From: a phage
DNA: 64,000 nucleotides
Assembly (NCBI GenBank): GCA_025832235.1
Contig: GCA_025832235.1_3649.1
Direction: 5' to 3' (one strand)
Part shown: piece after piece, positions 24,177 to 38,376 of the stretch
Layout: every line of letters starts with the position of its first letter
Numbering within the stretch: the first letter of the stretch is position 1
Made by a program: the position numbers and the translations under genes
Notes under the pieces: model-generated
The model's database searches: none
What the model saw: the letters and a program-made list of their open reading frames with translations, nothing else
What the model was told of the DNA's origin: nothing

Positions 24177-24635
24177 TCAACACTTTTTGTACTCCACCAC
24201 GATAATATTCATATCAAAAGTGGCAAGGTTAATAACGTCCTCTACGTGCTCCCACTTCAAACCGCCTATGCCGCACCCGATCTTAGGGATGTAGAATGGT
24301 AAAGTCGATCCACTGAATACCTCATTGACTAGCTCAAAGCCTTTCAGGATTGAGAAATATTCAGCATTAGGTCCTGGGTAGAACTGAGTATACAGATTGA
24401 TTCCGTAGACAATACCTCTCGGAGATAAGTGCTCCCATCGGGAGAACGCACCCAGTTTACTTAGGCAACCGTGTCTGGTCTCTTTGTCAGCTGCCAATGC
24501 TTGAGGGAACTCACGGGCAATCTGTTTTGCTATCCCCTTGCCCATTGTGTGGAAGCAGTTACAACCGTGGATCAGGTGACCAGCACCGCTCTTAAAAAGG
24601 GAGATTAAATCTCCCTCTACAGTATCAATAATCAC
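24177..24635 (-). CDS. macro-domain protein (ADP-ribose binding / ADP-ribosyl hydrolase family)
   Basis: HLIHGCNCFHTMGKGIAKQIA and IPKIGCGIGGL parallel the two glycine-rich ADP-ribose-binding motifs of macro domains such as E. coli YmdB; probable GTG start at 24635 (SD GAGGAG) rather than track start 24734. Confidence 0.65.
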   Translation of the reverse strand: MIIDTVEGDLISLFKSGAGHLIHGCNCFHTMGKGIAKQIAREFPQALAADKETRHGCLSKLGAFSRWEHLSPRGIVYGINLYTQFYPGPNAEYFSILKGFELVNEVFSGSTLPFYIPKIGCGIGGLKWEHVEDVINLATFDMNIIVVEYKKC

Positions 24636-25050
24636 GGTATGCCAGCTCCTCTTCCGCAATTTCAAAAAACTCAGTCCAGCACTGTGGCATATTGGAGTTA
24701 CCGAAGTGGCTTTCATAGTAAAGGTTCTCACCACTTGGAAGATAGAAATCTGTTACCTCATAGAATCCACAATCGTCGCACTCGCCTTCTTCAAACTTAG
24801 CCTCAACCTTAATACCGAGGAAGGTGAAAAGTTTATGGATATCTTCAGTTTCGAACTCCCAGTGAATGTTGTTTTCCGCATCGGTGTAGAACTGGATCAG
24901 CAGACCATTGTCCAGTTTACCAAAATACTCTGTGAAGTAACTTCCTTCCCAGAAATCTTTATGACAAATAATATCCATGCGTTTGCCCATAATAATGGTG
25001 TGAGCGTTTTGGGCATCGTCACGAATCAGTTTTGGCATTTCATAGATCAT
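24625..25050 (-). CDS. hypothetical protein
   Basis: ORF track; coupled to macro-domain gene. Confidence 0.5.
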   Translation of the reverse strand: MIYEMPKLIRDDAQNAHTIIMGKRMDIICHKDFWEGSYFTEYFGKLDNGLLIQFYTDAENNIHWEFETEDIHKLFTFLGIKVEAKFEEGECDDCGFYEVTDFYLPSGENLYYESHFGNSNMPQCWTEFFEIAEEELAYRDY

Positions 25051-25891: not shown

Positions 25892-26470
25892 TTAAAAGTA
25901 TTCGTATAAGTATCCATCTGGAGCTGGAATTTTTTCATGAATGTAGTAACCAATATATATTCCGGTTTCTCTGCTACAAGAGTTGTGAGATACCCATTCT
26001 TCAAGAACGTTACCATTCATGTCCAACCTCCTTACATTTTTGCACCGTCTACCGCTGGTGCTTCTATGTAACAGAATATCCTCTGTCTGCTTGTCTTTAT
26101 TTTCTCCCCAAGTCGTTAAACGGATATTATCAAAAGAGTACCCTTTGAAATCATCTATCCTGTCACAAGAAGGCTTTTTCCTTTTGTCGTATCCGCTGGC
26201 TACCCACTGATCATACAACTCTTTGTAACCGTTAAGGTATAGCCACTCCTTAAACTCTTTTTTGGTGTAAGTCGGAGGAGGGTGACCTCTTTGCTTGCTG
26301 TTGCACTTTTGAGCCTTGTACAACACACGTATTACACCTTTTTCTGAAGAGTCTTTAGCAAATTGGTCAGCCTCCCTGCTGGCCTTCTTGCAACACTCTT
26401 TGCACGTTGATTTGTTACTGGTGTAGAAGTCGGAGGCCTCCTTGTCCTCTCCACAACGTTTGCATTTCAT
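25892..26470 (-). CDS. putative HNH-family (homing) endonuclease with N-terminal zinc ribbon
   Basis: CKRCG...CKECC zinc ribbon; SCDRIDDFKGYSFDNIRLTTWGENKDK resembles HNH-type motif; same motif in 48815..49795. Confidence 0.45.
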   Translation of the reverse strand: MKCKRCGEDKEASDFYTSNKSTCKECCKKASREADQFAKDSSEKGVIRVLYKAQKCNSKQRGHPPPTYTKKEFKEWLYLNGYKELYDQWVASGYDKRKKPSCDRIDDFKGYSFDNIRLTTWGENKDKQTEDILLHRSTSGRRCKNVRRLDMNGNVLEEWVSHNSCSRETGIYIGYYIHEKIPAPDGYLYEYF

Positions 26471-26478
26471 AACTGACC

Positions 26479-27705
26479 TCAGAAAGGGATCGAGTCATCG
26501 AACTCATACTGCGCCGGATTCTGATCCATCGGGTCATCTTCCTCATCATTTACAGGAGGAGCGTCTACAGTGTTTTGCTGTAGAGCTGTTTCCTGTTTGG
26601 CAGCCTGAGGTTCTTGATGGTCAGTTGACCCAGCACCGTTCTTGATCCAATCGTACAACGGCTCAGCCAGATTAGTCAAGACATCTTTTGCTTCTGCAGT
26701 AATTGCCGCTGCAAAATCATCAACTTTAGTTTTCTTGTCAATACGGCGACAAGCGTTCAACACCGCATTACCGACACTGGCACCTACTTCATCTTCAGTT
26801 CGGTTGGTGGCTTGAGCATACTCTTTCTTAAGCTCAATAGTGACTACGTGCAGTGTTTTAGCCACGCCTAGTGGGTCGTCTACCTTAAACCCGCGATCCA
26901 GGATGATTTGCAACGCATTGATGCTATGTCCCGTCTCCACACCAATAGGGTCGTAAGAGGATTTACGCTTGCCACCAGAGCCTTGAGTGCCGTTCTCTGC
27001 CTTAGGTGGGTAGGCTTTGAAACCACTGATAATGTTTCCGGTGTCTTTGTCAACAATGGCTGCAACACGACCACCTACCACCAGGTCTTTAAGCTGCTCA
27101 TCAGTGACAACCATAGCACCTTCGCCAATCTTGTGGTCATTAACAGTAACCACGTTGCCAACAATCTGAGTCACATCACCATAGATGCGTAAAACGTCCT
27201 GATTGGCATTCTGCTGAGGTTTCTGCTTCTGGCCTTGTGATTGTGCACCTTGTTGCTGTTTTTGCTGCTGAGTCGCTGCTGGAGCCTCTCCTGCACCCAG
27301 CTTGACCATCTTAGCCAGTGAGCCTTTGTAATAGGTCTTACCGTTATGCTCGTTTGCCTTCAAAGGGATATTTACGATCCATCCCGGTGTTACGGTTTCC
27401 CACTTGTCATCAATTTTAACAGAGACAGAGTCTTGATGACCCGGTTTAAGCAGTTTATCACCCATACTGATCCAGACTTCTTCACCACCTTGAAGTAGGT
27501 TATCAGAGGAATCCAGTTCAGAAATCAGTAAAGAGATGGTGTGGCTGGATTCAATTTTCTTACCTTGCCACACAGTGGTTTTAATACCTGTTGTAGGATC
27601 AGCACCTTTGATAGGCTTGATGCTGACACGTTTAATCATGCCGTGAGCCAGTAAAACAGTTTCACGCGGATTCATCGGGTTAGCGAATTGTTGAATAACG
27701 CTCAT
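26479..27705 (-). CDS. putative single-stranded DNA-binding protein
   Basis: Gln/Gly-rich linker and acidic C-terminal tail ...EFDDSIPF like bacterial SSB ...DDDIPF; sits beside the replication module; OB fold not verified. Confidence 0.4.
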   Translation of the reverse strand: MSVIQQFANPMNPRETVLLAHGMIKRVSIKPIKGADPTTGIKTTVWQGKKIESSHTISLLISELDSSDNLLQGGEEVWISMGDKLLKPGHQDSVSVKIDDKWETVTPGWIVNIPLKANEHNGKTYYKGSLAKMVKLGAGEAPAATQQQKQQQGAQSQGQKQKPQQNANQDVLRIYGDVTQIVGNVVTVNDHKIGEGAMVVTDEQLKDLVVGGRVAAIVDKDTGNIISGFKAYPPKAENGTQGSGGKRKSSYDPIGVETGHSINALQIILDRGFKVDDPLGVAKTLHVVTIELKKEYAQATNRTEDEVGASVGNAVLNACRRIDKKTKVDDFAAAITAEAKDVLTNLAEPLYDWIKNGAGSTDHQEPQAAKQETALQQNTVDAPPVNDEEDDPMDQNPAQYEFDDSIPF

Positions 27706-28070
27706 TATTTGTCTCCTTGTTCTTCGTTAGTGTTTGCCGTGTGTGCAAACCCTGCTTGAATTAATTTGTCCTGAACTTGAGCCAGCAGGCCCATTGCAAA
27801 ACTTGTGGTCCCAGAGAGGGCCATCAGCATATCTCGTTGTTGAGCTACCCAACCTAAGGCATAGTCCAAACGACGATATTTTTCTTCTTCACGCAAAGCT
27901 TGGAATAATTGTTCAGCCTCTGGCTGTTGTGTGAGCTCCTGAAGTCTTCCCATGAAAGAAGAAAGCACTAGCAGAAGAGACACTTGATCTTTACTTAACC
28001 CTAAGAAAAATTCTTGAGGTTGTTCTTGCTCGTTCATCGCAACCGACGCTTGATCGTTCATTTGTTCCAT
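27705..28070 (-). CDS. hypothetical protein
   Basis: ORF track; coupled to SSB-like gene. Confidence 0.5.
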   Translation of the reverse strand: MEQMNDQASVAMNEQEQPQEFFLGLSKDQVSLLLVLSSFMGRLQELTQQPEAEQLFQALREEEKYRRLDYALGWVAQQRDMLMALSGTTSFAMGLLAQVQDKLIQAGFAHTANTNEEQGDK

Positions 28071-28153
28071 TATGGAATCTCCGATTTTATTTGAACAACA
28101 TAGAAGGAGACACTATTTTAGCATCCCCTTCTGTAAATTACAATAGGTATTTG

Positions 28154-28399
28154 TTAGCCAATCACTTCGAAAGTTCCCCAATTCCCGTCCAGCAGGCAGG
28201 TGATCGGATCTCCATCGTCGTCAAAGATTTCAAAGTTTTCAGCATCCAGGATGTGGCCCTCGAACACAATACTCTCGTCGCCACCACCAGAAATAACAGC
28301 GTATTCCTTACCTTGAGTCAAGTTTTGACACCCTTTGCCACCAAAACCTACTTCCACACAACGTACTTTCTGTCCTGCGCGAGCAACTACTTCAGCCAT
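28154..28399 (-). CDS. hypothetical protein
   Basis: ORF track. Confidence 0.5.
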   Translation of the reverse strand: MAEVVARAGQKVRCVEVGFGGKGCQNLTQGKEYAVISGGGDESIVFEGHILDAENFEIFDDDGDPITCLLDGNWGTFEVIG

Positions 28400-28416
28400 C
28401 TTAAGGTCTCCTGATA

Positions 28417-28737
28417 TTAATCGTCAAGTTCAAAATAGATTTTAACAGCTTCATCAAAGATTGGAATCCCGATGTTGTTGATAAGCTGCCAAACTACCAT
28501 ATCTTTACCTGGATCTGGGAGAATGTCAACCTTTCTCCATGCGCTGTATATCCAGTTCGGACCACCTTCTGCACTAACTGGCAGATTTTCACCAGCTTCC
28601 TGTAGATACTTATACAGCAAAAGATATTCTGGATACTCTAGAACACTGTCCTCTGTAGTATATAGCAGTTCACGGTATACTTTTAAAAACCCTGCGGGGG
28701 TGATGTTTTCAGTCTTCATTTGCTGCTTCTCCTGCAT
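28417..28737 (-). CDS. hypothetical protein
   Basis: ORF track. Confidence 0.5.
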   Translation of the reverse strand: MQEKQQMKTENITPAGFLKVYRELLYTTEDSVLEYPEYLLLYKYLQEAGENLPVSAEGGPNWIYSAWRKVDILPDPGKDMVVWQLINNIGIPIFDEAVKIYFELDD

Positions 28738-29101
28738 TCATCAGATCTGCCATAGCGTCACCAACGAAGAGGACAACCACATCGTTGACAGCGTCAGCAT
28801 CATCTTTGTTGACGTTGCTGAATTTAGGACACACAGCAATGATCATATAGACACCGTTGCCCACCTGAACTGTCCGTGTGGTGCACATCATGGCGGTATT
28901 TGTGCCTTCTTTGAAGGCGAAGCCTTGAAGACGCTCCTCTAGAGTGTTACCGGTAGATTTCAGAAGCGCCAGCTCGTCCAAGGCATATATGATATCTCCG
29001 GAAGTTAGTGTTGCCTTTCCATCAGACACCATAATCACTCCATCAGCACCGTCAAGCTTAGAGGCTTCAAAGATATCAATATCCCAAATATTTTTCATCA
29101 C
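28709..29101 (-). CDS. hypothetical protein
   Basis: ORF track. Confidence 0.5.
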   Translation of the reverse strand: MMKNIWDIDIFEASKLDGADGVIMVSDGKATLTSGDIIYALDELALLKSTGNTLEERLQGFAFKEGTNTAMMCTTRTVQVGNGVYMIIAVCPKFSNVNKDDADAVNDVVVLFVGDAMADLMNAGEAANED

Positions 29102-29430
29102 GCTTCCTCGTCGTCTAAGTAATCATCAAGAGAGGTGAAGATTTCACCGAAGTATTCTAAGATTTCTAGCTCACGTGTGGTGCAGCAAACATAATCTCCT
29201 TGGTCGTCCTTAATAGTGGCCTCTTTACCCAGAATATCTACTTCAAGTTCATCGTTCAACAGGACGGCCCCTGTGTAAACTTTGTCAGCTGTGCAGTCCC
29301 GAAAAGCAGAGTCCTTCTCCAGATAGTCTGGCTTAACCTTGGCTTTAATTCGTTGATATTGTTTGGTCATTGCTGTGGTCCCCTTTCGTTTTGATAGGGC
29401 CATTATAGTAGGCCCTATCACTGTTGTCAA
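29098..29430 (-). CDS. hypothetical protein, Cys-motif family (D-AF-DCT ... DDQGD-V-CT)
   Basis: ORF track; paralog of 29434..29688. Confidence 0.55.
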   Translation of the reverse strand: MTTVIGPTIMALSKRKGTTAMTKQYQRIKAKVKPDYLEKDSAFRDCTADKVYTGAVLLNDELEVDILGKEATIKDDQGDYVCCTTRELEILEYFGEIFTSLDDYLDDEEA

Positions 29431-29433
29431 GTA

Positions 29434-29688
29434 TTAATGTTCAGGTTTTACAAAAACTACTTCATTAACAGTGCACCAGACAGAGTCTCCTTCATCATCT
29501 TTAAAGGTAAGGCACTGTGCTGAGTTTTCCAGCTCATCGATCTCTTCTTGTGATAAAGGGGCCCCTTCTTCCAGGAGGGCTTTTACCAGAGGGTTCTCAC
29601 AAAACTCTGCTTCATAAATTGCACCGACTGTGCAATCTTTAAAAGCTCGGTCATTTGCAACGCATTCTGACTTCAAAGTAATTTTCAT
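29434..29688 (-). CDS. hypothetical protein, Cys-motif family paralog
   Basis: ORF track; DRAFKDCT ... DDEGDSVWCT. Confidence 0.55.
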   Translation of the reverse strand: MKITLKSECVANDRAFKDCTVGAIYEAEFCENPLVKALLEEGAPLSQEEIDELENSAQCLTFKDDEGDSVWCTVNEVVFVKPEH

Positions 29689-29764
29689 CTTAGCAGTCTC
29701 CTTAGTTATTTAAAAATCAACGCTCTGTTTGTGTAAAGCATCTTATATCTAATCTTACTTCTTG

Positions 29765-30136
29765 TCAATGACTATTTTCAATCAGCCACACAGGGTCGAG
29801 GTAAATTTGTTGGCGTGTTGCCCAATGACAAACTTCATTGTACATCTGAACCTCTTTGTCCGTCAGTTCACGAATAGGCTCATCTATACCCTCATTTTTG
29901 TGGTAATCCCAGTCGGCATCGATTTCCCACAGCCATGACTTGTTGTCACCACGCTTACGCACACAGAAGTCACCAGGACGGCCTGCCAGTGCATTTAAGA
30001 ACTCGTTCTCCGCTCGCTCCTGAAGAATACTAAGGAGCAAAACGTTGGAGCATGACCGTAAAATATGCTTCAGCTCACAATCATCAATCTCAACTTCAAT
30101 ACGTTGTTTGACTGTGTGGGTACCTTTTACTAACAT
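29765..30136 (-). CDS. hypothetical protein
   Basis: ORF track 29765..30163; ATG 30136 follows GAGGAGG. Confidence 0.55.
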   Translation of the reverse strand: MLVKGTHTVKQRIEVEIDDCELKHILRSCSNVLLLSILQERAENEFLNALAGRPGDFCVRKRGDNKSWLWEIDADWDYHKNEGIDEPIRELTDKEVQMYNEVCHWATRQQIYLDPVWLIENSH

Positions 30137-30146
30137 ACTACCTCCT

Positions 30147-30341
30147 CTAAACGAACTCTGCAAGAGTTGTGTTGTTCACTGCACCGCAGTAAATGGAGTA
30201 TCCCAGCCCATTAGAGTGCAGAAACCACGGCGTGCCGAAATTATCTTTCACGTAGACATCACCGTTGTTTGTAAAGGGCCAATATTCTTCCCCAAGGGTA
30301 AAATACCTATTCATACCTTCAGCAAGATACTTTACTTTCAT
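30147..30341 (-). CDS. hypothetical protein
   Basis: ORF track. Confidence 0.45.
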   Translation of the reverse strand: MKVKYLAEGMNRYFTLGEEYWPFTNNGDVYVKDNFGTPWFLHSNGLGYSIYCGAVNNTTLAEFV

Positions 30342-30565
30342 AGGTCCTCTTCAACAACTACAAACTTGGCAAGCAAAGTGGTTCCGTAGATATGATACTC
30401 ACCGTTTGCCAGGTGAGAGATATACCAGGCAACCCCTTCCTCGTCTTTAATCATTTTGTTTGCACGAGCTTTATCGTAATAAACCTCGTAGGTCTTTCCT
30501 TCTTTAAAGAATGACAGGTCTGTCATCTTTTCTTCTACAAAGGTAGCTTTAACCAAAGTCGTCAT
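30338..30565 (-). CDS. hypothetical protein
   Basis: ORF track. Confidence 0.5.
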   Translation of the reverse strand: MTTLVKATFVEEKMTDLSFFKEGKTYEVYYDKARANKMIKDEEGVAWYISHLANGEYHIYGTTLLAKFVVVEEDL

Positions 30566-30969
30566 TGATCAGTCTCCTTCTTGTTAAGTCTGAATACTGC
30601 AATAATAGCATTCCCAAGGTGCAGTGTCAAGTCATTTCCAAGATACCACAGCATTCCACGGTCATCTTTGATGAAAGGGTAGCAATTTGGTGCCTTCTCT
30701 TTAATGAAAGGGTGACAATCTGGTGCTTTCCAGACATTGTACACTTTCCCAACCTGAAAGAAATCAGGCCCTGTTGGGATTTTAGTGCCTGGCCACACTT
30801 GAGATACCTGAACACACTCCACCTGCATAATAACAGGGATAGTCATGGATGTAAATGTTTTTGTTGGTTCTACTACCATAAAAGTCTCCTCTTTGCTCAA
30901 CAACACTTCCATGTGTTGATAGTTTACATTAGTGACAATCACCCCAGTTACGACCACACAAGTATTCAC
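30562..30969 (-). CDS. hypothetical protein
   Basis: ORF track (GTG start overlapping end of polymerase exon 2); true start uncertain. Confidence 0.45.
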   Translation of the reverse strand: MNTCVVVTGVIVTNVNYQHMEVLLSKEETFMVVEPTKTFTSMTIPVIMQVECVQVSQVWPGTKIPTGPDFFQVGKVYNVWKAPDCHPFIKEKAPNCYPFIKDDRGMLWYLGNDLTLHLGNAIIAVFRLNKKETDQ

Positions 30970-31282
30970 CTGTGATCTGGAACGGGACTCCCATCATTTT
31001 AGAAGCTTGCCAGAAGCAATGCACCACCATTTCACCCACAGGGCTCCAGATAAGTTCAAGCTTTCCGTCATCGTTCAGGATAGGATCGTACACCGTGTTT
31101 CCGTCTCTGTCAACCACTTCGTTTCCGTTTTCATCCTTGCGTGCCTTTTTGTACTTATGACCGTCGAACACATGAAGTTTGGCTTCCTGCTCTGCCTTAA
31201 ATGCTTCCAGTTCTTCAATTGTGTCGAAGGTGTACACAGTCTTATACTTCGGTGTGTCAGGCACTTGAAGTTGGTACTCATC
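30929..31282 (-). CDS. DNA polymerase (family A, T7 gene 5-like), exon 2 (C-terminal, begins with the DE of motif C)
   Basis: Translation DEYQLQV...GEYLCGRNWGDCH; C-terminus parallels T7 DNA polymerase ...TEGKMGPNWAICH; no SD or start codon of its own. Confidence 0.7.
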   Translation of the reverse strand, partial: DEYQLQVPDTPKYKTVYTFDTIEELEAFKAEQEAKLHVFDGHKYKKARKDENGNEVVDRDGNTVYDPILNDDGKLELIWSPVGEMVVHCFWQASKMMGVPFQITGEYLCGRNWGDCH

Positions 31283-31558
31283 CAATAGTTCAGGTAGGTC
31301 GTTAAGCTACCCCGCACCATTACGTGCATAGCCATACGTTTTCACGTAGGATCGGACCATCTCATATTCCTATGATAAGCAACCACAGGAATCCTCCCAT
31401 TTCGACCGCACTTGCTGGTCTACTTCCTTTCGGAATGGCCTCTGAGCGTTCGCTCTTTTGAGCGCTTCGTTGCGGATTACCTTGCCATAAGGTTTAGGCT
31501 TCCCGCAGTTAAAGAGGTTATTCGACATAGATTACTCTATGAAGCCACAATGTTATTT
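31283..31558 (-). mobile_element. group I intron (276 nt, ORF-less) in the DNA polymerase gene
   Basis: Splits H|DE of motif C; 5' exon ends in U, intron ends in G; IGS GUGG pairs with exon CCAU; P-like AACUGCGGGAAG (31499-31510), Q-like AAUCCGCA (31471-31478), R-like GCUCAGAGGCCA (31436-31447), S-like GAGAUGGUCC in canonical order; stops in all frames. Confidence 0.7.
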
Positions 31559-34500
31559 ATGGTAATAAATAATACGACGAACACCTTCATCGTACCACCC
31601 ACGCTTCACCATCTGGCGGTGCATGAGTATTCCAACTAAGTCACACAGCGATGCACCACCATTTTGTTGGTATGCATTAAGTAAAGAGTGTTTAGATCTG
31701 GTCCAGATAGCATGACCATCAAAAGAGTAGATAAACTTCTTACCCGTTGCTTCCCAGAATTTCTCCAGATCTTCTTTACGCCCCTTAAGACCAGGGTTGG
31801 CATCCCAGAGTGCATCGATTACCCTTTGTCCCAACTCTGGAGAGATGTCCAGCATATCTGCAACTTTATCTTTTTGTGCCCCATACATAACCCCATACGT
31901 GATAGGTTTACCGTCGTTACGGGAAATCTCCTTGCCTGCTACAGAAGAGTAAGCTTTGGCGTTATTACAGTTACCGCACACTGCCACTTTACCATTCCTT
32001 CTCACAATGATTGCTCCAGAAGGGACGGTAACGCAATAAACCAAAGAACCGCTCACCTCGACAGACTCTTTAGATAGTGTCAGCAACCCTGCTCTCTGTT
32101 TGCTACCAATTGTGATTCTGTGCTGCACGGCACGACCTTTTTTGTGAATCGCCACCGTATTATTCCGTAAACCACACTGAGTAGCCAGCGCAGACACCAC
32201 CTCTACAGATTTCTTCCTGCACTCGGCCTGGGAGTAGTAAGCAACCTTTCCACCTTCGGAAGATACCCACCCGTCCCAGTTAGATAAAGAAGCTATAAAC
32301 AGGTTTTTAGATTCTTTATCAAGGTTCATCAGGTTATAGGTGAAATCCTTATTGTTGTCCAAAAACTCAAATACCCAGGACGGAACGTGGAATTGGAACC
32401 TTCTCGCCAGTAAGCCTCCTTTTGTGGTTTTCCCGCTCTGCTCTACATAACTAAGGCTTAGAGCAGAAAAAGTATCTAAAAGCGTTGCAACTTTTCTTCC
32501 CTTTCCGACCTGAATCCTGCACACGATGCTGCCGTCCTTATTTGTATGCAAGTGCCCATCATCGTGAATAGCAATAAGCAAATTAACCTGGGCAGGAGAT
32601 AAGGTTGTATTCCCATAAAACTCTGCCGCATGGATAAACCTTCTTCCTGAATTAGACCCTTTACCTGCTTTCAGGTCTTTTGCCAAATCTTCAAACAATT
32701 TATTGCTTCTGTGATCCACAGTCAGCATCCTGTGTTGATCTGTAACCATAAAATCCACACTACTGTTGTGGAAATGATACATATCCCCACAATAACTACG
32801 CTTAACGTAATTTAATGGAGTAACAAGGTTCATTGACGAGGTGTTGTGATCGTACTGGAACACTTGTGTTCCCGGATCAAGATCTTCAAACCTCACCCAC
32901 CCTTTCTCCGTGAGAATTTGTGTATCTCCTGAATAACAGTGTGCATCGCCGTTACTTACAACATCGTAATACAGGCCGTTGTCGAACTCAAAGGCACCCC
33001 AAGCCCCGATAAGCTGCTCTAAGTTGGACCCGTCAATACCGATCTCAAAGTATCCTGGAGGAACACCCCACAGACTACGCATCTCTTTACCCATAACCAC
33101 TTTAGGAGATGGTTTAGGCATGTTTGCACAAATACTGTGTTTCTGTCGGGAAGTGTTTGTTAATCCAGAACTTTTAGCAGGAAGCTTATGGTCAATCTTC
33201 AAACGTGGGTGATTAAGAAGACCAGTATCAACCTTATCCTCCTTGATTGGATCAAGGACCGATCTGCGGTTTCGCAATGATAACCACAAGACGATATCTT
33301 TAGCCATCTCTCCGTTCAATTTTTCAAGATTCGGGCATAGGTGTCCAAACGTATCTTTCAGTTGCGGAGAAGTAATAAGTGCCCTAGCTTTTCTACGTAT
33401 TTTCCCGAATACTTCCTTTTTAATCCTTTCGGAGTTAGGAAAGCTTCTGAACTTGTGCACGGTTGTCTGGAACTTAGCATCAGTTTTGTTCCAGAAGTTG
33501 ATAATTAGGTCACAATACTCTGACTCTAAAAGCTCGTCCATATATGCATACACTCGTGCATCAACATCTGCATCAGGTAGAGCTTTCTTCTTGCTGTCTT
33601 TAGTTACATCCTTAGTTCTCCACATTGTCGGAAGCCAACCAGCACTGATCAGGTATCGCTTAATATCGTCCTGATTGCTGATTTTCATAGGTATCTTGCA
33701 GTCAGGCATTCGCTTCTGCTGTAGATCACTTATTGCCTGATCCATTAGCTCTTTAGGTAAAGGTTGTGGTGTGGAGGTGCCCTTGATATAGCCCCTCAAG
33801 AAATCCGCCATCTTATCAGGGTCTTTACAGCCCATCTCTTCACACCATTTTATCCCCATCTTACTGACATCTCCTGTGGAGGTAAATGCTCGCTTAGGAG
33901 GAGCTTTGAATTCTAAAGCACTCATGTCCACAGGGTAGCCAAGCTTGTCTTTTAACCATTTCCAACCATTATTGGAGATTGTCCCATCCTGGTTAAACGG
34001 CTTTTCAGGGAACTTAGGCCGCTGAGACATTGATAACTCTTTTAAAGGAAGTTGTGGTTCAACACGATCAGCGATCTCTTTCATCCACGCATCGCAGCGG
34101 TCACGTAAAGCAATAGCCCCATCTATGTCGAAATACACACCCTGTCGAGCCTGCAGCTCCATCAGGAAATGTTGCAGCATGCCTCGGCGTAATGCATTCT
34201 TCCAGGTAATCTTCTTGAATCCTTTAGGCTTCTCTTTGGCAGGGTCATACATAAAGTTCTGCATGTCAGATTTGCCGTAGAATACACCTTTTGATTCCGC
34301 TACCAACTCTTTCCAGAGCAACTCCTGGATGATAACGTCCTCGAACACACGATCCACATATTTCCACAGCGGAAGATCGCGCCAGTCATCAATTTGAACT
34401 TTCTGGTTACCAAGGGCGTAGCCCCATGCCATAAGGCCGTGAGGACCAACAGGTTGCATTTTCTTAGTAACCGGGTTGAATACAGCGTCCGGACAACCTT

Positions 34501-34951
34501 TTGGTAAAGGGCGATCAGGCCACAAGATTCGGCTCATAGCCAACGTATCAAACAGGTTAACCTGGTGGTCGTTGATAGTCCCCATGCATTTAGGATCACG
34601 GAACATATCAAAATGAATACCGGATAATCTTTCCATTAGCATAAAGTCATAACTGTAGCAGTTATGGCAGTTCAAAGCTGTTGGTGACCAGTCAGAATTG
34701 CCTGTAAGCCAACCTTCCAACTCCGAAAAATCTGCTATGCGAACTTCAAAATCTTTATAAAGAGTTTTCTTTGCCAGAATGAAGTTCTTAGCCTTTTCTA
34801 TATCCTCCTCGGAGTAGTGTGTGCGGTCATTTAGAGGAAGGAACAGCATAAAACGGTTCTTATTCAGCTCTTTAAACAGACCGCAGTGATAATAAAGATC
34901 TGGGTCTTCCAGCAAACCGGATGACTCAAAATCGAAAGACCACATACTCAT
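31559..34951 (-). CDS. DNA polymerase (family A, T7 gene 5-like), exon 1, containing an in-frame intein
   Basis: N-terminal 3'-5' exonuclease motifs (FDFESSG, CHNCYSYD, GPHGLMAWGYALG); motif A IDGSNLEQL; motif B KPITYGVMYGAQK; ends ...RRIIYYH where HDE is expected. Confidence 0.85.
31970..32938 (-). mobile_element. intein (323 aa) with LAGLIDADG-type homing endonuclease domain
   Basis: Block A CYSGDTQILTEKGW, block B LTVDHR, LAGLIDADG-like LLIAIHDDGH and FIASLSNWDGW, C-terminal VYCVTV...VAVCGN followed by +1 Cys; flanking exteins NGDAH|CNNAKAY restore a T7-like NGDIHTKNQIA segment. Confidence 0.75.
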
Positions 34952-35009
34952 ATACAGTTCTCCTTAAAGGGGAGGCGGTTGTACTACCCCTCCCACTCTT
35001 TGTTAAACA

Positions 35010-37088
35010 TTAAAAAGGCGTTTCATCATCCTCAAAACCAGGGACCGGGTCAGAGGATGGATCATCGTACTGGAGGTCTTCCTGCGTGTCAACAGGCTTA
35101 ACAGTAGGAGTTACAACCTTATCAGCCACAACCTTGCCCATAGGTGTTTCTACAACTGCATGCTCCTGATCCTCAAACATAGCCTGAGGTCTCCAAACAA
35201 CCTCCCCACCTTCTCCGTCTGTAAACATTTGCATTTCTTTGTCCCAGTACCAATTACTGGCATCATGGAACTTACCTGTATGCGGATCCATAACTAAAGT
35301 GTCAGCAATACCTAAAGTTTTTGCTGGACGGTTTTTAAGACCTACCAGACGGACACGTCCACGAGAACGATCCACCATTTCTTCAGCCTCGACACCTATG
35401 ACTACCCAACTCAACTGTTCAAGCCCAGCCGATCCTCGCAAATTCTCTTTTCGCACAGGATACCAGAAAGGTAACGGGTTACCATCCTTGTCCTTAGGAG
35501 GCACAATCTCTGTACGTTTGAGGTGAGCGATCACCAAGATAAACACGTTAAACTGCTTACAAAACGCAGCCAGCTGAGTCATAGCCATGTCCAGTTCTTT
35601 TCGCTCATCCTTAACATTAAGCCCTGAAATTACCATGGACAGGTGATCCAGCACAATATAACGGCAATGGTACAGGCAAACCATTTGCTTAAGCTTGGTA
35701 ATCAACTCGTCCACCGGAATAGATCCGAAATGTTTGAACACTTTGATTTTTCCAGCTTTTGCCCATGATTGGTGAATCTCTGCGTGTTCTTGATCAGTTA
35801 AAAACTGGCTAGGATCTTCAACAAACTCTTTAACATCAAACCCTAACTGGTTTGCATACAAGGAGTTAATTGCTTCCTCTGGGTCCTCCTCAAGATGGAT
35901 CATACATAGACGATCATCCTCTTCATAGTCATCAGCCTTCGGGCATGTCGGGTCCATTAGGTATCTTGCAATACAATGTTCCAGTTTTTTAGCTACAGTT
36001 GTTTTACCGCCCCCTGATGGCCCTGTAAGCATTACGAGTGTCCCTTTGTGCAAGCCTTTTAGCATTTTTTGCAGTTTTGGGAACTCTGCGCTGATATCTA
36101 CCCCGTTGGAAGTCTTTTTCCGCAAAGACTCGATAGAGAAGTCTTCTAAATCCGACACAGCATCAGGCACATATTTAACAGGGTGCCGGAACATGTTGAC
36201 AATATCTTCCAGCTTTTTAGCCTTCAGCATGTCACGGATATCTTTTACCCCGTCAGGGTCATTTACTTCACCAGGGTATTCTACGTGGTAAACGTTATCA
36301 GCCATCAAAAATGCTGCGATATTGTGCGTGGCCTCAACACCTTTAATGACGTGTTTTTGCTTCTCTACCTCGTTAGCTGCATCGTTATCCATTGCCAGCA
36401 CAACTGTTCCATAGCTACGGATAAACTTCTCATTGTTTGCAAAAGTATCTACTGCGTTTGCACATCCACAGTTAATTCCAACAAAAGGCAGGCAGGGTTT
36501 TCCTGCCAGATCACCACCGTTGATAACTGCGTCGATCCCGTCCTGGACCTCTTTAGCCCACTGCTTCACCTTTGCCGGGGCTTTAGCGTTGGTGAGAATC
36601 CCTTTTACTTGTATCTGATATGCAGCCTGCCATGCTGCAATAACATCACCTTCCCCCTCACAAACGTTAATCTGCTTACGGTTGTTGGAAGATGCACACA
36701 GCTTTTGACCAAACATCTGGGAGTTGGCCTTTACGATGCCAACAACGGAGAAGTGGCCCCTTTGTTCTTTAGGAATAGTCCAGTCACGCTTTTTGAAACC
36801 GGACAGATTTCCGTAGCGGTCGTAATATGGGAAATATGTTGCAGTGACTGTCACACCGTCTTCTTGTGACAATGCTGATCGCACACCAAAATATTGTGCA
36901 GCCATCAGACCGATATTTTGTTGTGGGACAGGGACAATTTTAGTATTTTCTAAAACAGTCTCTACAGTTTCAACTTCTTTTTCATCACGATAGTCTCGTT
37001 TCACACTTCCCCCACTTTTATACTTAGTTGCTTTCGGGTTTGGCTCACCGAAACGGTTGTATGCAGATGCCATAAATTTACTTCCCAT
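35010..37088 (-). CDS. primase-helicase (toprim domain + DnaB-like helicase; T7 gp4-like)
   Basis: Toprim motifs CEGEGD and LAMDNDAANE; Walker A LTGPSGGGKTT; Walker B IVLDHL; AHLKR; acidic C-terminal tail ...FEDDETPF. Confidence 0.8.
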   Translation of the reverse strand: MGSKFMASAYNRFGEPNPKATKYKSGGSVKRDYRDEKEVETVETVLENTKIVPVPQQNIGLMAAQYFGVRSALSQEDGVTVTATYFPYYDRYGNLSGFKKRDWTIPKEQRGHFSVVGIVKANSQMFGQKLCASSNNRKQINVCEGEGDVIAAWQAAYQIQVKGILTNAKAPAKVKQWAKEVQDGIDAVINGGDLAGKPCLPFVGINCGCANAVDTFANNEKFIRSYGTVVLAMDNDAANEVEKQKHVIKGVEATHNIAAFLMADNVYHVEYPGEVNDPDGVKDIRDMLKAKKLEDIVNMFRHPVKYVPDAVSDLEDFSIESLRKKTSNGVDISAEFPKLQKMLKGLHKGTLVMLTGPSGGGKTTVAKKLEHCIARYLMDPTCPKADDYEEDDRLCMIHLEEDPEEAINSLYANQLGFDVKEFVEDPSQFLTDQEHAEIHQSWAKAGKIKVFKHFGSIPVDELITKLKQMVCLYHCRYIVLDHLSMVISGLNVKDERKELDMAMTQLAAFCKQFNVFILVIAHLKRTEIVPPKDKDGNPLPFWYPVRKENLRGSAGLEQLSWVVIGVEAEEMVDRSRGRVRLVGLKNRPAKTLGIADTLVMDPHTGKFHDASNWYWDKEMQMFTDGEGGEVVWRPQAMFEDQEHAVVETPMGKVVADKVVTPTVKPVDTQEDLQYDDPSSDPVPGFEDDETPF

Positions 37089-37872
37089 TAATTCTGCTCC
37101 TTACTACAGGCTCGTTTGCTAGGAATACGGCTTTTGCCCAGCCACGTGGTGTGAGGCTTCGAATCATCTTCGTTCTTGCACTCTTTCCACCCAGCTTGGC
37201 GTGTTGCATGGAATACCCGCTAACCGCGTCAACTATTTGCGGGACAGGTTTTGTGGCTGGGATTATAAATCCATTACCTATCCAGCCGCAAGTTATTTTT
37301 GGATAGGCATCACGTGGAGCTATAAATTCAGGAAACCATGGGTTTACATCATCTTCCGGTAAATACCCGCCATAATCCGAAGGGTGAAAACGGTAATCAG
37401 GTTTGCGCCACAGTGTGGACATAACACCCACAGGATTCTCTACATGCCACGGGCAATCGTAAATCTCTCCCAGCTCTTCCGCAACCCGAGCATCCTTTAC
37501 AGCATTAATTTGGATCATGGGGTCCTTAGCCAGCTTTTTCTTAAAATGTGCAGCACCTGATACCGCTAAATGCGTGCACGGAGGAAATGCAAGAATAAAA
37601 TCTGGAGCCGGATACATGCAAAAAGTTTCCTGAGGGAACCACGGGTCAATCCAATAGTCCACATAGTGAATGTTGGGATGATCGGTGATCACCTCTGCAT
37701 AACTGCCGTGATCAGCGCCTTCTGCATTAAAGCACAGGCACAGGTACCCAGCTTTTGCCCAGTCAATGGCTGCACCACCAGACCCGTCAAATAGACTCCA
37801 CACAACACCTTTGTGGTAGTGTTCTTTGTAGATAAATTTCAATTTGCTGTCTCCTAATGCAAAAAGCCCCAC
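37078..37872 (-). CDS. DNA (cytosine-5)-methyltransferase-like protein (tentative)
   Basis: Motif I-like LFDGSGGAA, motif IV-like FPPCTHLAVSGA (PCT instead of PCQ), motif VI-like HVENPVG, in canonical order; only 264 aa. Confidence 0.4.
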   Translation of the reverse strand: MGLFALGDSKLKFIYKEHYHKGVVWSLFDGSGGAAIDWAKAGYLCLCFNAEGADHGSYAEVITDHPNIHYVDYWIDPWFPQETFCMYPAPDFILAFPPCTHLAVSGAAHFKKKLAKDPMIQINAVKDARVAEELGEIYDCPWHVENPVGVMSTLWRKPDYRFHPSDYGGYLPEDDVNPWFPEFIAPRDAYPKITCGWIGNGFIIPATKPVPQIVDAVSGYSMQHAKLGGKSARTKMIRSLTPRGWAKAVFLANEPVVRSRINGK

Positions 37873-37893
37873 CCTTTCGGGCAGGGCCTAGTG

Positions 37894-38376
37894 TTAAACC
37901 CGGATACCTATTGTATACTCGGTGGATACCAATGTCAAATCTAAATTTAAAATTTCTTGCATCTCATAATATGCGTCCAGGGTTAGATACATTTCCCCAT
38001 CCTTTTCTGCATACTTGTCCAAGTGCTTAAGGCATTTCGGATAACTATCGAGTGCAGCTTTCAGACACTCAAATTCTGTGCTGTTAATGAATCCTTCCAT
38101 CTTAGCTACCCGTTCTGGAGTAACGATAGCACTGTAGTGAGATTTAGCTTCCTGAATGCAATGGGTCCAAGCATCAACTTTCTCTTCGAAAAGCCCGAAG
38201 AACTTCTTTTTGGTGAGCTTCAGATTCTTTAAGTGCTTAAGCACTCGGTTGCCGATCACAGCCACATCACGAAACTTAAGGATCACTTTGTCGATATCCT
38301 CGCGGCCTATTTTCACAAAGCAAGCCTCGCACATTTCAGGAGTGGCATAGCCTACTTTCCACATAAAATCTGACAT
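37894..38376 (-). CDS. hypothetical protein
   Basis: ORF track. Confidence 0.55.
   Translation of the reverse strand: MSDFMWKVGYATPEMCEACFVKIGREDIDKVILKFRDVAVIGNRVLKHLKNLKLTKKKFFGLFEEKVDAWTHCIQEAKSHYSAIVTPERVAKMEGFINSTEFECLKAALDSYPKCLKHLDKYAEKDGEMYLTLDAYYEMQEILNLDLTLVSTEYTIGIRV

Follow-up and report, generated by a model that had tools for sequence, protein, structure and literature searches.

The 64,000-nucleotide stretch of phage DNA analysed here (GenBank assembly GCA_025832235.1, contig GCA_025832235.1_3649.1; hereafter the window) contains a replication module in which two proteins, a single-stranded DNA-binding (SSB)-like protein and a primase-helicase, end in acidic tails closed by the residues Pro-Phe. 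The window belongs to an rV5-like E. coli phage of the genus Vequintavirus: a megablast search with positions 26000-38000 matched 141 phage records, most of them Escherichia phages of this genus (rV5-like myoviruses of 136-143 kb) at 93-98% identity. The genes concerned all lie on the minus strand, as do all the window features located below, and within the replication module. In the direction of transcription, the order is a Dcm-like methylase, the primase-helicase, a DNA polymerase, about 12 small open reading frames (ORFs), an ORF of 121 amino acids (aa), the 408-aa ORF of the SSB-like protein and a homing-endonuclease-like ORF. The primase-helicase (692 aa) occupies 35010..37088 and the SSB-like protein 26479..27705; between them, the gene for a T7-like family A DNA polymerase, the candidate docking partner of the two tails, extends over 30929..34951, with an intein and a group I intron inserted in it.

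The 408-aa protein ends in ...NPAQYEFDDSIPF, its final residues being QYEFDDSIPF, and the primase-helicase ends in ...DPVPGFEDDETPF, with PGFEDDETPF as its final residues; the longer C-terminal stretches read ...DDPMDQNPAQYEFDDSIPF and ...QYDDPSSDPVPGFEDDETPF, respectively. The last 30 residues of each protein include 10 Asp/Glu, none or one Lys/Arg and five Pro. In the AlphaFold2 models, the predicted local distance difference test score (pLDDT) falls below 50 in the C-terminal stretches of the 408-aa protein (residues 359-408) and of the primase-helicase (residues 640-692), and thus both tips are predicted to sit on flexible acidic tethers of about 50 residues. In the 408-aa protein, the tether comprises a disordered, acidic, Pro/Gln-rich linker (residues 359-400; 26506..26631), recognised by its low pLDDT, its variable and gappy alignment columns and its composition, followed by the tip EFDDSIPF (residues 401-408; 26482..26505), which sequence and conservation mark as a putative docking peptide of the type found in bacterial SSBs. 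In the primase-helicase, a disordered acidic linker (residues 640-684; 35037..35171), with equally low pLDDT and variable, gappy columns, leads to the tip FEDDETPF (residues 685-692; 35013..35036), defined by its sequence and by the conservation of P691 and F692.

The PF tips are the best-conserved C-terminal feature of both families. A 25-sequence alignment of the 408-aa family, with identities as low as 29%, shows no variation at P407 and F408 and very little at D403, and the approximately 45 residues ahead of the tip are variable and gappy. Moreover, an acidic ending of the form ...[ILV]PF is found in 117 of 147 family representatives that are mutually at most 50% identical. Among 96 distinct primase-helicase homologs, which include those of Vibrio phages and extend to about 42% identity, 96% retain P691 and 99% retain F692; the linker columns of the same homologs are mostly gaps or less than 50% conserved. 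As judged from these alignments, a conserved PF tip beside a variable linker in both families strongly indicates strong purifying selection. The matching acidic, Phe-ended tails that an earlier note on this DNA had described in the two proteins are thus confirmed in sequence, and they are both conserved and alike.

It could still be argued that two unrelated acidic C-termini merely happen to end in PF. Among the 329 ORFs of at least 50 aa in the six frames of the window, the 408-aa protein and the primase-helicase are the only two with this ending, and the count alone is weak evidence, since residue frequencies lead to an expectation of about 0.6 PF-ending ORFs by chance. Coincidence is nevertheless so improbable as to be negligible, because PF is near-invariant beside variable linkers in both families; the similar composition of the linkers and the occurrence of the same optional extension on both proteins (see below) also speak against it. 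Recent copying of one tail onto the other gene is ruled out as well, the tail-coding DNAs being identical at 13 of 30 nucleotides.

As regards the type of tip, the C-terminal motif of bacterial SSB (SSB-Ct), DDDIPF, serves as a hub with which more than 14 proteins of E. coli interact (PMC5872125). In the structurally characterised sites that receive it, the Phe side chain enters a hydrophobic pocket, the alpha-carboxylate meets a basic residue and the Asp residues lie along a basic ridge (PMC3159472). The tip of the 408-aa protein, DDSIPF, agrees with this motif at five of six positions and that of the helicase, DDETPF, at four of six. Many relatives of the 408-aa protein carry DFDDDIPF, and distant members of the family end in EPPMDFDDDIPF, which is identical at 12 of 12 positions to the C-terminus of E. 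coli SSB (PDB 1eqq/4mz9). Relatives of the primase-helicase read DFDDDTPF, DFDNDTPF or DEPF, variants of the motif in which Thr, Ser or Glu takes the place of Ile. By contrast, the T7 gp4 peptide seen on gp5 is DTDF (PMC12339929). By their sequence, then, both tips are of the bacterial SSB-Ct type and not of the T7 type, so that the proposal of the same device as in T7 stands as far as disordered acidic tails with a terminal Phe on both proteins are concerned, and fails for the tip itself.

The order of helicase, polymerase and SSB-Ct-tailed protein is found again in two phages, BIS47 of Klebsiella and 277E43-1 of Vibrio (L014), and in the distant metagenomic myovirus contigs L010 and L011. 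The helicase PF tip, in turn, is present only in Vequintavirinae-like and Vibrio lineages: the helicase of L010 ends in NKDF and that of L011 in EGSY, and the SSBs of both keep DDDIPF. As the SSB tail persists in distant relatives without the helicase tail, the pairing of the tails is lineage-specific, the SSB tail appearing as an ancient, general feature and the helicase tail as a lineage-specific addition modelled on it. In 277E43-1, a 402-aa protein of the same module (L014, 17866-19074) ends in YNETPMDFDDDIPF. A BLASTP comparison with the 408-aa protein gave no significant similarity, the tail (E 0.18) and one stretch of 30 residues (E 0.005) being the sole local matches, and this protein may represent a second, unrelated SSB-Ct-bearing family. 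An RNase H gene lies directly upstream of the PF-tipped helicase in this phage. In L010, an ORF like T7 gp5.9 (PF25708; 9837-10001) lies directly upstream of the SSB-like gene, which adds one more T7-type element to the replication module of a myovirus.

In some members of both families PF is followed by 15 further residues, with the conserved sequence AP[IV]GL[QP]Y[GA]xxx[IL][HY]x[LIV]. Relatives of the SSB-like protein read ...DDDIPF-APIGLQYANHTIYVL and -APVGLQYGKSRIHAL, and a relative of the primase-helicase reads ...DDDTPF-APIGLQYAKHAIYVI; the sites concerned are L003 4225-4272, L004 4185-4230, L005-L007 at about 919-966, and, for BIS47, L008 2729-2776 and L009 1711-1758. A tblastn search found the same extension in 231 phage records, including classical SSBs of unrelated phages. 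It occurs on the E. coli-type SSBs of the lambdoid phage mEp235 (...DFDDDIPFAPVTLPFPRHAIHAI) and of Vibrio phage BT-1011, and also on the unrelated SSB gp26 of phiEB49; these three proteins share the tip and the extension with relatives of the window proteins, but differ in having a classical OB domain (or one of the phiEB49 type) and in lying in recombination modules. Phages exist with the extension on both proteins, on either one alone or on neither, the window phage being of the last kind. In BIS47, where both proteins carry it, the two DNA copies are identical at 39 of 75 nucleotides (52%) and eight of the 15 extension residues coincide, seven of these eight being encoded by different codons; the extension peptide itself is therefore under selection. 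A homing-endonuclease gene often starts within or just after the extension (L003, phiEB49, GAP31), and in L003 its start codon lies inside it. As an explanation, a scar or by-product of homing endonucleases is insufficient, since no endonuclease lies close to the extension in L004, BIS47, mEp235 or BT-1011. A literature search with the extension sequence strings found nothing relevant. The sharing of one optional extension by both proteins and by classical SSBs suggests that the tips are equivalent modules in evolution.

In the AlphaFold2 model of the 408-aa protein (mean pLDDT 73.8), a beta domain, a disordered Gln-rich linker, a second beta domain and four helices precede the disordered tail. 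The N-terminal beta domain (residues 1-138; 27292..27705) is a predicted oligonucleotide/oligosaccharide-binding (OB) fold. The second, small beta domain (residues 171-232; 27010..27195), delimited by the alignment and the model, is missing from the short family members of about 275-305 aa. The four-helix domain (residues 253-356; 26638..26949; pLDDT 88-96) is the family's most widely conserved part; in most of the distant family matches the best-scoring stretch runs from this domain through the C-terminal tail and does not include the N-terminal domain. In a fold comparison the predicted OB fold superposes on SSB folds, a likeness at the level of the fold only. Foldseek matches to IF1-type OB folds (probability 0.99, 67-71 alignment columns) probably belong to the second small beta domain.

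A Foldseek search of the model against the PDB gave nothing at E <=1e-3, and a search of BFVD returned uncharacterised homologs and weak SSB and DUF2815 matches only. No Pfam family, PF00436 included, matched the 408-aa protein or 24 relatives (25 members) at E up to 1; phmmer against PDB sequences found no match to any solved structure, and a profile of the N-terminal domain was likewise negative against PDB sequences. With no Pfam match and a negative PDB profile search, the protein falls outside the classical SSB OB-domain family. A sequence link to the phiEB49 gp26 SSB through a common 'E-x-NGK-x-Y' stretch was considered and rejected (hhalign probability 9.6%), so that of all these attempts to connect the protein with known SSBs the comparison of folds alone was informative. 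The protein does match phrog_4477 over its full length (residues 1-408, E 2.6e-172), a family labelled 'unknown function' in PHROGs, into which ten divergent family representatives also fall without exception. The family comprised 56 proteins in one search and 246 clusters at 50% identity (E up to 1e-3) in another, and a few GenBank records name the protein or its relatives 'putative SSB'. Furthermore, tblastn found no classical E. coli-type SSB OB domain in the window or in the 114 kb of the close relative JLBYU08 (best E = 0.37), in which SSB annotation is limited to the 408-aa gene and the adjoining 121-aa ORF.

On account of the predicted OB fold, the SSB-Ct tail and the place in the replication module, the 408-aa protein is taken to be the phage's single-stranded DNA (ssDNA)-binding protein, as the earlier note had it. 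The assignment is well supported by predicted fold and architecture, which are its basis rather than sequence homology or experiment, and implies that the protein would bind ssDNA. It is improbable that the protein is some other OB-fold factor of replication or recombination (PriB-like, RecO-like or a mediator) that carries an SSB-Ct-like peptide and is not a replicative SSB. Like bacterial SSBs, it joins a predicted OB fold to a disordered linker and the ending DDSIPF; unlike them, it has additional beta and helical domains and a sequence outside the classical family, and in this phage a second copy of the motif is carried by the replicative helicase. We know of no described example of an SSB-Ct-type motif on a bacterial replicative helicase, although no search was aimed at one.

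The primase-helicase, a gp4-like protein of the TOPRIM/superfamily 4 (SF4) type, matches phrog_239 'DNA primase/helicase' (E 6e-160) and the Pfam families DnaB_C and AAA_25. Its closest solved structure is T7 gp4 (E 4e-16), the TOPRIM sequence EGEGD being aligned with EGEID of T7. The reconstructed mature polymerase (intein-free and spliced; 925 aa, C-terminus ...GRNWGDCH) matched T7 gp5 with E 8e-16 among solved structures, versus 0.13 for Klenow. As gp5 and gp4 are the closest solved structures, the term 'T7-like' is justified for both proteins, and a T7-like polymerase does accompany the two tails. Residues 1-120 of the primase-helicase (36729-37088) contain no Cys, and residues 1-37 are predicted to be disordered; a Cys4 zinc-binding domain of the T7 type is thus not apparent on the N-terminal side of the TOPRIM fold, and this raises the question of how the primase would recognise its template.

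In T7, as the earlier note stated, the tails of gp4 (DTDF) and gp2.5 bind basic patches of gp5, notably the front patch K587/K589/R590/R591 (PMC12339929, PMC8472574). The window resembles T7 in its gp4-like primase-helicase and gp5-like family A polymerase, in the disordered, acidic, Phe-terminated tails of the SSB-like protein and the helicase, and in a dibasic pair of the polymerase. This pair belongs to a G-K-K sequence (31736..31744), the two Lys of which are aligned with R590/R591 of T7; the sequence is GKK in the window and in the distant L011, and GKR in BIS47. Beside GKK, the alignment places a six-residue deletion that removes the K587/K589 segment of T7. In terms of the alignment, the K-K pair is compatible with a residual front basic patch, and no more.

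The mechanism proposed from these elements is the following. The phage SSB, composed of an OB fold, a small beta domain and four helices, would carry EFDDSIPF-COOH at the end of its disordered acidic linker, and the primase-helicase of this lineage would have acquired the equivalent FEDDETPF-COOH on a linker of its own, each linker being about 50 residues long; a hexameric primase-helicase would present six copies of the tip. For both tips the receiving site would be of one kind, a basic-rimmed hydrophobic pocket that accommodates the terminal Phe together with its alpha-carboxylate. The likeliest partner for the two to share would be the adjacent T7-like DNA polymerase; the tips would tether it to the helicase and allow it to take over template coated with SSB, in the manner of gp4 and gp2.5 acting on gp5 in T7. 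That an SSB with an SSB-Ct-type tail and a helicase with an equivalent tip both dock at the same kind of replisome site is the reading that we prefer, with modest confidence. The two tips may use one common site. The phage polymerase as the specific docking partner is the weakest step, argued by analogy with T7 and put forward tentatively, and host SSB-interacting proteins are equally open as the target.

Several observations weigh against this reading. The tips carry Pro-Phe as in the host SSB and not the D-x-D-F of T7, and only two of the four front-patch residues of gp5 have aligned basic counterparts in the window polymerase. The 12-residue identity between distant family members and E. 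coli SSB would be explained by host partners no less readily than by the phage polymerase. The helicase endings of L010 and L011, found alongside SSBs that retain the motif, indicate that the helicase tip is not a general requirement of such replisomes. Finally, in the relatives with the 15-residue extension the Phe becomes internal, which is at odds with carboxylate-dependent recognition and hard to reconcile with a site for the free carboxylate.

Alternatively, the tips could be functional copies of the host SSB-Ct. Their main targets would then be E. coli SSB-interacting proteins (for example Pol III chi, PriA, RNase HI, ExoI, RecQ, RecO or DnaG), which the tips would either bring to phage forks or withdraw from host SSB by titration. 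The match of DDSIPF to DDDIPF (PMC5872125) and the full identity reached by distant members favour such mimicry, as do the retention of [DE][DE]x[ILV]PF in the 117 diverse representatives counted above, the DFDDDTPF of helicase relatives set against a T7 DTDF that has no Pro-Phe tip, and the persistence of the SSB tail where the helicase tail is absent. However, polymerase, primase-helicase, RNase H, exonucleases and ligase are all phage-encoded, which makes the need for host factors uncertain, and the identity with the host tail could have arisen by exchange of modules with ssb genes of classical phages or of the host, and not through selection by host partners. Mimicry of the host interactome as the main function is judged rather unlikely, and it would be compatible with docking on the polymerase. 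A broader version appears a little less likely again: the tips would be working copies of host SSB-Ct through which the SSB and the hexameric primase-helicase plug into, or compete for, the host SSB interactome, the 15-residue extension being a cap or a second motif that switches or re-targets the hub. If this were true, the helicase would in effect present itself as SSB.

Another possibility concerns tails acting purely in cis, as DNA mimics on the protein's own OB cleft or on the helicase exterior, which would tune affinity and cooperativity with no shared docking site. The tails of E. coli SSB and T7 gp2.5 have been described as competitors of ssDNA for the OB fold and as inhibitors of DNA binding (PMC9917605, PMC5928155), and both window tails are strongly acidic. 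Charge alone, however, would not require an invariant terminal Pro-Phe in two unrelated folds, and in every system characterised these tails bind partners as well; a purely autoregulatory role is accordingly given little credence, less even than a non-SSB identity of the 408-aa protein. Docking at a replisome site has a further phage precedent in part: the SSB of HK620, also a divergent phage-encoded protein, has a PF-ended acidic tail (NDYPPF) that is required for the phage-encoded partner Sak4 on ssDNA (PMC5928155). The partner there is a recombinase-like annealase and not the replisome, and no matching helicase tail was described (PMC5928155).

The tails are best regarded as a real, conserved and fairly expected variation on a device known from T7 and from bacteria. 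The results offer a functional annotation, SSB with an SSB-Ct hub peptide, for a family of 246 clusters that PHROGs lists under 'unknown function' and that is not in Pfam. They also suggest that large rV5-like myoviruses run a T7-style three-protein replisome, which acidic tails with a terminal Phe would join. Moreover, since the tip is the host's own SSB-Ct, these phages provide a simple means of asking whether the partners of such tails belong to the phage, to the host or to both, and the extension past PF raises a direct question on the accepted need for a free C-terminal Phe in SSB-Ct recognition.

With respect to the insertions in the polymerase gene, the intein comprises 323 residues (672-994; 31970-32938) and is not present in phage JLBYU08. 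It ends in ...VCGN|C, with Gly as the penultimate residue; inteins usually have His at this position. The group I intron (RF00028, 64.7 bits with a gathering score of 50; Rfam match 31333-31568) spans about 31283-31558 and splits motif C as YYH|DE, exon 2 being 30929-31282. In phage WalterGehring the polymerase coding sequence is annotated as a join of two pieces, with a homing-endonuclease gene between them.

Around the SSB-like gene, the 121-aa ORF (27705..28070; phrog_7310, function unassigned) has a stop codon that overlaps the SSB-like start, which suggests translational coupling. This ORF is kept upstream of the SSB-like gene in relatives and could possibly encode a partner subunit of the SSB-like protein. 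In JLBYU08 it is labelled 'putative SSB', with no evidence visible in support of the label. On the other side, a 192-aa Cys-rich ORF (25892-26470) begins 8 nucleotides past the SSB-like stop codon. It gave no match in a Pfam search, is annotated in relatives as a 'putative homing endonuclease' and is missing from the same site in JLBYU08; L003 has a longer allele, the start of which falls inside the SSB extension. Further downstream, among small early genes, a Macro-domain ORF (PF01661, E 3e-6) is found at 24177-24734. Finally, 16 GenBank records titled 'Campylobacter phage' (MG0656xx) match positions 26000-38000, seven of them at 96-98% identity among the matches listed, and as the region is otherwise that of rV5-like E. 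coli phages, the host labels of these records look doubtful.

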